Source: an uncultured Ruminococcus sp. | GTDB taxonomy: Bacteria; Bacillota; Clostridia; Oscillospirales; CAG-272 | Assembly: GCA_964621165.1 (NCBI GenBank) | Contig: CAZULC010000001.1 | Span: forward strand, 204,281 to 268,280 | Reading direction: 5' to 3' | Length of the DNA stretch: 64,000 nucleotides | Shown: positions 47,712 through 49,064 of the stretch, piece after piece | How positions within the stretch are numbered: position 1 is the first letter of the stretch | How the letters are laid out: each line of letters opens with the position of its first letter | The notes under the pieces: generated by a model | The model's input: only the letters and a program-made list of their open reading frames with translations | What the model was told of the DNA's origin: nothing | Database searches by the model: none | Program-made: the position numbers and the translations under genes

Positions 47712-49064
47712 ATGAAAGATGAACAGAATCGAGAGAAAAGACAAGGGATAACACCTAATGAGATATTTCTGCTGGCGGTGAAGCTGGTGACATTGGGGAT
47801 CGTTTTGTATGTTACGCTGAATAATCTGGATAAGGTGCTGGCGTTTGTGGGGAAGGTGTTTGCGCTGGCGTCGCCGCTGTTGATTGGAGCGCTGATTGCG
47901 CTGATACTGAACACACCGATGATGGCAGTGGAAAAGCAGTTTTCGCGGATATCTGAGAAGCGCGGGAAAGCCATACCGATGAAGACGGCGGCGGTTGTGT
48001 CGCTTGTGATAACGTTTGCGGCGGCGGCACTTGTGATATACTTACTGGCGCACACCATATTTCCGCAGCTTGGTGAGAGTGTGCGGGGGATATACGAAAA
48101 GGTTATGGCGGCGCTTCCGGGGTGGATTGATAAGCTGAACGAGCTTAAGAAATATGGAATTAACGCTGAGCCTGTCGAGAACTTTCTGAGGGAGATAGAC
48201 CTTGAAAGCATCATGACTAAGGTGAGCGAGAATTCGGCGGCGATACTGTCCACGCTGACCAGTGGAGCTACGTCGTTGATCAGCGGAGCCACATCGGTTA
48301 TCAGCTGGATTGTGACGGCGTTTACATCTGTTATATTTTCGATATACATACTTGTGAACAAACAGAAGCTGGGTGCGCAGATACGCAATGTAGGTTATGC
48401 TTTTTTGAAAAAGAGCGCAGCTGACAGAATCGGGCGGGTGTTCCGGTTGTGTGTGAACACGTTTGCGGGATTCATCAGCGGGCAGTGTTTTGAGGCCATT
48501 ATACTGGGGCTGCTGTTTTTTATAGTACTGTCACTGCTTGGCTTCCCATATGCTTTGGCTATATCTTCGATCATATGTGTTACTGCCATAATACCATATG
48601 TGGGAGCTTTTTTAGGATGTGCTTTCGGCATGCTTCTTATGGTGATAGACGACCCGCTTCAGGCGTTGTGGTTTATGATAGTGTTTCTGATTATACAGCA
48701 GGTTGAGAATCAGCTGATTTATCCCCGTGTGGTTGGCGGTTCCATAGGGCTTCCTGCCATCTGGACTTTTGCTGCTGTCATAATTGGCGGCGGCTTATGC
48801 GGAGTTTTAGGTATGATCCTATTTATTCCGTTATTCTCCGTTTTATACACTTTACTCAAAGAAGAAGTCCATCTCCGGCTTACTGCGAAAGGTATTGAAG
48901 TCGCTGATTCCGGTGAGTCCGATTCCGCCACTCCCGAAGAAAAAAAGTCCGGGGGTGTTTTTGAAAAAATCTTTACGATAATCAAATCCAAATTAGAAAA
49001 GAAAAAATCTGCTGGTGCATCAAGTGGAGGAGAAGGAGACGAGGGGAACGGGGACGTTTCTTGA
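47712..49064 (+). CDS. AI-2E family transporter (PerM/YtvI-like); the last ~15 codons and the stop lie inside a family A repeat
   Basis: Multi-TM protein with the conserved motif QLIYPRVVGGSIGLP. The C-terminal SSGGEGDEGNGDVS and the TGA are encoded by the repeat leader and hairpin loop. Confidence 0.85.
   Translation: MKDEQNREKRQGITPNEIFLLAVKLVTLGIVLYVTLNNLDKVLAFVGKVFALASPLLIGALIALILNTPMMAVEKQFSRISEKRGKAIPMKTAAVVSLVITFAAAALVIYLLAHTIFPQLGESVRGIYEKVMAALPGWIDKLNELKKYGINAEPVENFLREIDLESIMTKVSENSAAILSTLTSGATSLISGATSVISWIVTAFTSVIFSIYILVNKQKLGAQIRNVGYAFLKKSAADRIGRVFRLCVNTFAGFISGQCFEAIILGLLFFIVLSLLGFPYALAISSIICVTAIIPYVGAFLGCAFGMLLMVIDDPLQALWFMIVFLIIQQVENQLIYPRVVGGSIGLPAIWTFAAVIIGGGLCGVLGMILFIPLFSVLYTLLKEEVHLRLTAKGIEVADSGESDSATPEEKKSGGVFEKIFTIIKSKLEKKKSAGASSGGEGDEGNGDVS

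Follow-up and report, generated by a model that had tools for sequence, protein, structure and literature searches.

The 64-kb window analysed here, a stretch of 64,000 nt from contig CAZULC010000001.1 of an uncultured Ruminococcus sp. from the gut Clostridia, encodes ordinary proteins of the replication origin region (the products of mreC, dus, rsmG, parAB, mnmE, jag, yidC, rnpA, dnaA, dnaN, gyrB, gyrA and other genes), and about 24% of it is non-coding. Many of the spacers are 350-500 nt long, and a mosaic repeat makes up much of the non-coding part; one copy of this repeat extends into the 3' end of a gene for an AI-2E family transporter. The features at this junction are the following (positions are those of the window):

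47712..49064, plus strand: coding sequence of the AI-2E family transporter (450 aa, PF01594), with the last 10-14 codons within the repeat
49021..49064, plus strand: overlap between the coding sequence and the repeat; the high-scoring segment pairs of the self-BLAST start at 49019-49035
49022..49055, plus strand: purine-rich, T-poor leader of this copy (AGTGGAG...GGAGACGAGGGGAACG + GGGGAC)
49056..49071, plus strand: core hairpin GTTTCT-TGAA-AGAAGC, with the stop codon TGA (49062-49064) in the loop
49075..49082, plus strand: GCAAGAAC box, nearly invariant across copies and other genomes
49072..49369, plus strand: body modules, reaching the promoter/ribosome-binding site (RBS) region of TrkH

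The tail of the transporter and its stop codon derive from repeat sequence. The 450-aa open reading frame (ORF) ends in ...SSGGEGDEGNGDVS followed by TGA, and the final ~40-44 nt of the coding sequence are repeat DNA: self-BLAST of the window places the onset of homology at 49019-49026, and the segment from 49019/49026 to 49369 matches many other copies in the window. Within the leader, the 16-mer GGAGACGAGGGGAACG is present at 49035-49050 with 0 mismatches; matches to it with at most 3 mismatches number 13 in the window, against 0.55 expected, and most of them lie directly 5' of the hairpin core. The original prediction, made from this sequence alone, was that the last codons of the transporter are read from the leader and that its TGA sits in the hairpin loop. 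Both statements are borne out, the former by the exact 16-mer and the self-BLAST homology, the latter by a loop that reads TGAA between GTTTCT and AGAAGC. The very end of the protein, ...GDEGNGDVS-stop, is the leader plus half of the hairpin in translation, and the tail as a whole is non-conserved and of low complexity. In the reading frame of the transporter, the first stop codon encountered in the repeat is the loop TGA; the remaining two frames would add 16 or 57 codons. The copy is single-armed (whole-copy fold z = 0.37), and its leader contains 4 extra nucleotides, GGGA, before the hairpin compared to the family consensus.

Altogether, 19 AI-2E orthologues were compared at the protein level, and the DNA at the gene's 3' end was read for 6 of these; a search of genome contigs with the transporter recovered relatives at 34-39% only. 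The C-terminal ~55 residues are unconserved among the 19 proteins. The 3' ends differ in their relationship to the repeat:

L005 (79% protein identity): tail ...GGDGDAS, TGA in the same hairpin loop
L004 (81% protein identity): ...GNGGVE-TAA, hairpin 23 nt downstream
L010 (54% protein identity): TGA immediately precedes the leader (TGACTGGGGAACGGGGGGACGCGGACGCTTCTTGTAAGAAGCTTGGCAAGAAC)
L012 (53% protein identity): ...GENGSPS read from GACGGGGAAAATGGGTCGCCTTCTTGA, TGA at the loop position
L007 (56% protein identity, full synteny): repeats absent, spacers compact, tail ...EESDKKQEK unrelated

Comparison with orthologues lacking the repeat had been proposed as the check on whether native C-termini were replaced, and for the transporter it supports a repeat-derived tail, that of the repeat-free L007 being different. 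The stop codon of the L004 orthologue is repeat-borne as well, because the 60-nt stretch that brings its TAA (GGAGTAAGCCGAAGGCGTTCGACGGGGGACGCTTCTTGAAAGAAGCTTGGCAAGAACTTT) is identical between positions 7350-7410 and 10669-10730 (minus strand) of that locus; the TAA was probably introduced by recent conversion or replacement between copies. In L012, a relic at 2030-2075 keeps the leader and the 5' half of the hairpin, and the 3' half and the box are gone. No intact core was found in ~15 kb of that genome (L012 together with L033, both from sample ERR14047982), where spacers are as short as 12 nt. With this half-hairpin relic, L012 is a coding fossil of a repeat family that is otherwise lost or rare in this genome. 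The AI-2E copy in the window retains the TTGG variant that is also seen in L004 and L010, the usual form in the window being TGTG; together with the 4-nt insertion, the shared variant marks the copy as an old one that predates these lineages. On these alignments, the stop position has slid in and out of one old repeat copy in the course of the divergence of the orthologues.

The same kind of tail is found in two unrelated genes on gut metagenome contigs, those of LeuA and a beta-helix protein (tails ...NGGNEDAS-stop and ...NGGNGDAS-stop). LeuA in L026 ends in ...NKCLLGALGDAENEGNGGNEDAS-stop (...GDAENEGNGGNEDAS-stop) at the loop TGA and is 13 aa longer than an 89% identical orthologue, P0244, which ends in ...NKLLLGTGSV; a beta-helix protein in L032 ends in ...TENGGNGGNGDAS-stop, again at the loop TGA. 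Thus, the same DNA placed behind unrelated genes yields a peptide of the form (E)GNG(G)D-A/V-S-stop whenever an ORF enters the leader in that frame. Repeat-derived C-terminal extensions are accordingly seen in the AI-2E transporter, where the tail is absent without the repeat, and in L026 LeuA compared to P0244. The leader itself seems to change rapidly by slippage, considering that the tails differ between the 98% identical LeuA proteins P0243 and L026 (...AENAENGGNGDAS vs ...AENEGNGGNEDAS) and that the number of leader units varies, with up to six GGGGGAAAC units upstream of the core in L031 (reverse complement). Distant AI-2E orthologues have acidic low-complexity tails of similar length, so that an ancestral acidic, glycine-rich tail might in principle resemble the purine-rich leader by chance. 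We give this possibility next to no credence and consider coincidence excluded: the exact 16/16 match to the leader forms one continuous stretch with the hairpin, the box and ~300 nt of homologous body sequence, the same tail peptide arises from the same DNA behind unrelated genes, and the tail of the repeat-free orthologue is unrelated.

The basic unit of the repeat is polar, with a leader, a hairpin, a box and ~300 nt of lineage-specific body modules in this order. The leader is purine-rich and T-poor and is composed of the short units GTGGAG, GGAGACG and GGGGAACG; the consensus hairpin consists of 6 bp (GCTTCT-TGAA-AGAAGC); and the box that follows, GCAAGAAC(T)TT, is almost invariant. The 30-nt core CGCGCTTCTTGAAAGAAGCTGTGCAAGAAC is present in 18 copies in the window at up to 3 mismatches, with 0 expected, and a looser 27-nt search detects 19 core copies, including the diverged one at 49056. 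All 19 cores are extragenic apart from the 3'-end overlaps, and inverted pairs are present, as in palindromes of the repetitive extragenic palindrome (REP) type. Besides single units, there are inverted pairs, which make up long palindromes, and collapsed copies reduced to a leader, hairpin and inverted leader or to a solo hairpin (14805-14872, 47589-47656 and 51559-51644). A search of metagenome contigs with the core identified 20 loci, some of them from the human gut, with a GC content of 50-60%. The leader and the core are common to these loci and the window, and the bodies are different. The leaders of the metagenome loci are T-free tandem arrays, for example (GGGGAACG)n or (GGGGGAAACG)n. 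A G-quadruplex was considered, as some leaders in other genomes (L031) contain at least 4 G-runs, but the window copies mostly have 2-3.

A typical unit is co-oriented with the gene that it follows, the leader starting 0-6 nt after the stop codon and the hairpin lying ~20-45 nt downstream of it; in the metagenome loci as well, leaders start 0-6 nt after TAA, TAG or TGA. Of 53 copies examined, 27 have a co-oriented ORF (at least 100 codons) whose end lies 10-55 nt before the hairpin, and 4 have one that ends in the loop TGA. Within the window, 11 of the 19 hairpins lie no more than 100 nt behind a co-oriented stop codon, compared to 2.3 expected under random placement and orientation in intergenic DNA. 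The strong tendency to start 0-6 nt after a co-oriented stop is real. Orientation tracks the gene rather than the replichore: on the same side of dnaA, a unit at 12119 (plus strand) follows a plus-strand gene and one at 16554 (minus strand) follows mnmE, which is on the minus strand. The copies in the window that bear on the relationship between the repeat and stop codons are:

5229..5682, plus strand: inverted unit pair (long palindrome; fold z = -9.6) behind the stop codon of a glycosyltransferase gene (5226-5228), ending 13-20 nt before the rsmG start
14805..14872, minus strand: copy collapsed to a solo hairpin, directly behind a response-regulator stop codon (14873-14875)
16379..16596, minus strand: unit co-oriented with and directly behind mnmE (stop codon 16597-16599)
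25576..25965, plus strand: copy starting 1 nt after the dnaA stop codon (25573-25575)
28252..28471, plus strand: copy directly after the dnaN stop codon (28249-28251)
46674..46853, plus strand: copy behind a tadA-like deaminase gene, TGA at 46674-46676 and hairpin 18 nt later
51559..51644, plus strand: collapsed copy between trkA and BNR_2, made up of a leader, a remnant hairpin and an inverted leader; full-length copies are present there in L004 and L005
52793..53021, plus strand: copy behind BNR_2 (stop codon 52790-52792), a site that is empty in L005
60421..60683, plus strand: copy behind the gene for an AMP-binding enzyme, TAA at 60418-60420 and hairpin 14 nt after it

The dnaA-dnaN spacer as a whole (25576-26985) is 1.41 kb long; the repeat copy is followed by ~1 kb of AT-rich sequence with no convincing ORF, which may be the origin-unwinding region.

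Outside the AI-2E gene, the repeat in the window adjoins native stop codons, and the alignments indicate that the C-termini of the respective proteins are not replaced. DnaA can be aligned with its B. subtilis and T. maritima counterparts up to 1-3 residues from either end, and the end of DnaN, ...FLYFIMPVSL, matches the C-terminus of the solved clamps. Glycosyltransferase orthologues with 67-82% identity keep ...GRIYFD(L/V)(K) whether the repeat is present or absent: in L034 (82%), TAG is followed at once by a different leader (AGTGGGGGGAAAAACGC) and a hairpin, and in L033 (68%), the repeat is absent and TAA is followed by a 12-nt Shine-Dalgarno spacer and rsmG. TrkH ends in ...DLPIG-TGA in the window, where a 55-nt spacer without the repeat follows, and in L004 and L005, where the repeat comes right after the TGA. 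BNR_2 ends in ...KISL(G/D/E) with TGA in the window (repeat), TAA in L004 (repeat) and TGA in L005 (no repeat). Native ends are found also in the tadA-like deaminase, with the last residues unchanged between filled and empty sites, in MnmE (...FCVGK), in the response regulator and in the AMP-binding enzyme. Stop donation at dnaA, dnaN and the glycosyltransferase gene had been one of two readings in the prediction; it fails there by the refuting observation that it had itself named, namely, orthologues without the repeat that keep the same terminal residues and stop position. The three strings that it quoted in support are indeed present after the stop codons at 5226, 25573 and 28249, but the repeat homology, which was said to begin at the stop codon itself, starts 1-4 nt after it (at 5232 behind the glycosyltransferase gene and at 25577 behind dnaA for the family designated D20).

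The other reading was that the stop context itself, in the form of the string TGACG(A/T)(A/G)AG, is the target of the element. This consensus matches none of the 3 cited sites, and its 3 matches in the window are intragenic and at chance level (2.1 expected). TGA is the commonest stop codon in the window (22 of 42 genes); it is followed by C in 8 of these 22 genes and by CG in 6, and no repeat lies behind 3 of the 6 TGACG stops (genes 8353..9177, 33211..35835 and 42202..42675). Leaders in the wider family come after each of the three stop codons, and the claim that TGACG is a target should be dropped. The hairpin module shared by the three cited sites is that of the D20 family (TAACTTCGAAGAAGTTAG), which has a fourth copy at 36918 (minus strand), behind the infB terminator, with no TGACG.

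More generally, site-specific insertion at or just inside stop codons, with TGA or TGACG as the target and routine donation of the stop, could be envisaged, given that most leaders start 0-6 nt after stops, that all three D20 copies located behind genes in the window start after TGAC(G), and that the L004 AI-2E stop codon lies within repeat sequence. Furthermore, TGA is the stop codon of 9 of the 11 window genes that have a hairpin no more than 100 nt downstream, compared to 13 of the 31 others (Fisher p = 0.035). This signal is weak, and the excess of TGA is not reproduced in other genomes, where the stop codons before leaders are mixed (TGA 7, TAA 5, TAG 3). Against targeting, the type of stop codon varies at the same occupied site (TGA/TAG for the glycosyltransferase, TGA/TAA for BNR_2), whereas the stop position and the last residues do not differ between filled and empty sites; stops without the repeat are followed by the TGACG context just as often, the consensus matches no cited site, and the fourth D20 copy lacks TGACG. 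Besides, empty sites are tiny (a 12-nt Shine-Dalgarno spacer in L033, 55 nt between TrkH and TrkA), so that any viable insertion is forced next to a stop codon. The closeness of the repeat to stops can be attributed to these very short ancestral spacers of 12-55 nt, in which only the first nucleotides after the stop are open to insertion without parting the next gene from its RBS or promoter. We therefore regard targeted insertion as improbable.

The explanation that we favour, and that appears reasonably probable, is that the repeat is a polar extragenic element, similar to REP and bacterial interspersed mosaic elements (BIME) or to MITE (miniature inverted-repeat transposable elements), which resides behind stop codons, and that loss of a native stop leads to run-through to the loop TGA. 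Under this scenario, the transporter's own stop codon would have been lost or shifted, whether through point mutation, through an indel, because the leader slipped, or because another copy overwrote or converted it; that copies can overwrite one another is seen from the 60-nt identity in L004. Translation would then run through the stop-free leader to the next in-frame stop codon, which in one of the three frames would be the TGA of the hairpin loop. A leader that is poor in T, or free of it, offers few or no stop codons. The run-on would be tolerated because the tail of the transporter is an unconstrained low-complexity extension. The order of these events in the AI-2E gene is inferred. The repeat itself would spread as a selfish or neutral element, with tight gene packing and selection placing it against stop codons; an advantage that is specific to one strand, or a disadvantage of the inverse orientation, may add to the proximity to stops. 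Of 7 syntenic sites compared between the window, L004 and L005, 4 differ in occupancy, a turnover that is typical of repeats.

Several observations weigh against this explanation. The ancestral tail of the transporter is too variable among the orthologues to tell replacement from extension. A Pfam scan of 29 proteins from the window revealed no transposase, REP-associated tyrosine transposase (RAYT) or other mobilising gene, and the loci from other genomes, which like the window cover a small part of each genome, showed no RAYT either. No convincing target-site duplication (TSD) was found by eye at full, filled and empty sites, and no sharp outer boundary was found either, the arms of inverted pairs carrying different leaders; the fuzziness of the boundaries can be explained by the degeneracy of the leader. 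With regard to terminal inverted repeats (TIR), inverted pairs do exist (5229-5682), many copies are single-armed, and the outer leaders of the arms are unequal in sequence and length. The 27-nt core is nearly identical across genomes with 50-60% GC and at an orthologous site in lineages with ~54% identity, a conservation that exceeds what is expected of a purely neutral element. Finally, the orientation that follows genes on one side of the origin hints at a strand-specific role at the transcript level.

The last two points are part of the case for a rival interpretation, in which leader, hairpin and box form a functional, strand-specific RNA element of 3' untranslated regions (UTR) or intercistronic spacers. 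The unit might stabilise 3' ends, serve as a processing site or modulate termination or ribosome release; selection would hold it in place behind stop codons, and the AI-2E overlap would be a side effect that is tolerated. Most copies are co-oriented with the upstream gene whatever the replichore, the core is conserved across divergent genomes, and several loci have the unit between a stop codon and the next RBS or just before a separate terminator. [quoted passage not shown] One subfamily shows compensatory changes in an extended stem, the 3-bp extension pairing in this subfamily only. However, this is a short, weak hairpin, and the local folding is no better than that of shuffled sequences (z = -0.4 to -2.1). 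Overall covariation is no higher than in shuffles, a test that is uninformative because the 6 core pairs are almost invariant. Neither the gathering thresholds of Rfam nor a permissive limit of E up to 5 gave a match to the repeats, the sole hit in the window being a tRNA (36669-36758). About one quarter of the copies are inverted in front of genes, and presence or absence of the unit differs at the 4 of 7 sites mentioned above even among ~80% identical relatives. On balance, this interpretation is possible and clearly the less likely one. Its more specific version, namely, that the unit is not merely selfish DNA and that gut Clostridia possess in it a so far undescribed RNA module of 3' UTRs or intercistronic spacers, specific to one strand, is rather more doubtful still; in such a module, the G-rich, stop-free leader could be a spacer or a tract that interacts with ribosomes or RNases, and a conserved factor could recognise the hairpin and the box. 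If this were the case, the AI-2E and LeuA ends would be natural experiments in which termination is coupled to the module.

Some known types of elements were considered and set aside. An intrinsic (Rho-independent) terminator was rejected, the hairpin being AT-rich, of 6 bp, and followed by the GCAAGAAC box instead of a U-run; some metagenome loci have a separate canonical terminator after the unit. A selenocysteine insertion sequence (SECIS) or another recoding signal was dropped because the UGA is inside the loop and not upstream of the hairpin; an integron attC site, because the neighbours are housekeeping genes of the origin region; and ends of the IS200/IS605 type with a tetranucleotide target, because there is no fixed flanking tetranucleotide.

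Donation of C-termini and stop codons by repeats is an already documented type of event in bacteria. In Coxiella burnetii, the small non-coding repeats QMITE1 and QMITE2 are abundant and share 1-50 bp with the 3' ends of functional genes, including those of transporters; EnhC of one strain takes its C-terminal 33 aa from QMITE2, and in another strain the protein stops just before the same insert (PMC5896051). The difference between the EnhC strains is the pattern that we observe among the AI-2E orthologues, but QMITEs have terminal inverted and direct repeats and reside in a gammaproteobacterial host, whereas the present units have no defined TIR or TSD, possess a purine-rich leader built of tandem units and mostly share the orientation of the upstream gene. 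In enterobacteria, the enterobacterial repetitive intergenic consensus (ERIC) and the repeats RU-1, RU-2 and RU-3 are fused to the 3' ends of conserved genes with elimination of the normal stop codon, so that extra C-terminal residues past the conserved domain and a new stop come from the repeat (Delihas 2007, PMC2759123). There is no sequence relation to the family described here; ERIC is a ~127-bp imperfect palindrome, and in the present case translation takes in no more than the leader and one half of a small hairpin. Many REP and BIME of E. coli lie within 1-20 nt of the upstream stop codon and can affect translation and mRNA stability (PMC12306157, PMC2817692). REP, BIME and the REPIN-RAYT system resemble the present family in being short, high-copy extragenic palindromes that form mosaics of alternating orientation in transcribed spacers; they differ in that here no RAYT is seen, the bodies are lineage-specific and 300-400 nt long, the leader is a tandem G/A-rich array, the host belongs to Clostridia, and the hairpin has only 6 bp and is usually 20-45 nt from the stop.

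Among other bacterial repeats, Rickettsia palindromic elements (RPE) become coding sequence and are inserted in-frame inside genes; Correia elements carry regulatory signals next to genes and have TIRs and a TA duplication; and mycobacterial interspersed repetitive units (MIRU) are tandem 40-100-bp units with small ORFs, the ends of which overlap the flanking stop and start codons. To our knowledge, the leader-hairpin-GCAAGAAC architecture is found in none of RPE, Correia elements and MIRU. A literature search by repeat sequence strings returned nothing relevant. The present family works like the QMITE, ERIC/RU and REP repeats but fits none of them, given that there is no sequence relation and no defined TIR or TSD and that no RAYT was seen; it appears to be undescribed, with the polar leader-hairpin-box design and the co-orientation with genes being its distinctive traits.

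The repeat family is a more interesting object than the AI-2E tail itself. An abundant extragenic repeat can rewrite protein C-termini, the loss of a stop codon giving rise to a short, stereotyped tail rich in G, N, D and E that ends at the loop TGA. The position and orientation of the units behind stop codons are unusually strict and merit study at the transcript level. Annotation of metagenome-assembled genomes in this clade should take into account odd ...GNGD(A/V)S tails, ORFs called spuriously within repeats and starts that are over-extended. Inside repeats, small ORFs or over-extended starts are called in L004 (3935-4147 and 10329-10538), in L005 (4358-4912) and in the window (29047, a TTG start of the gyrB ORF, and the start of 12561..14876); these are likely to be annotation artefacts to which the repeats give rise.

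Other repeats and insertions were also noticed in the window. Six copies of a 40-nt AT-rich motif (GGATTATCTTTTTTTCAAAAATTTATTGCAGAATTGTTAA; family D16), spaced 59-124 nt apart, are located at 2863-3384 in the 618-nt spacer between dus and a flavin reductase gene; the motif is unrelated to the main repeat and may represent an array of protein-binding sites. A 12/24-nt tandem repeat is found inside infB at 39425-39856, in the region encoding the low-complexity N-terminal part of IF-2, and three tandem 105-nt copies lie just upstream of the infB start at 40095-40410 (families D1 and D15). Low-complexity inserts make several housekeeping proteins unusually long, namely, Jag/KhpB (715 aa; 18700-20847), DnaA (562 aa; 23887-25575) and RsmG (5683-6696), which contains two inserted segments and has 337 aa compared to 264 aa for its L033 orthologue.

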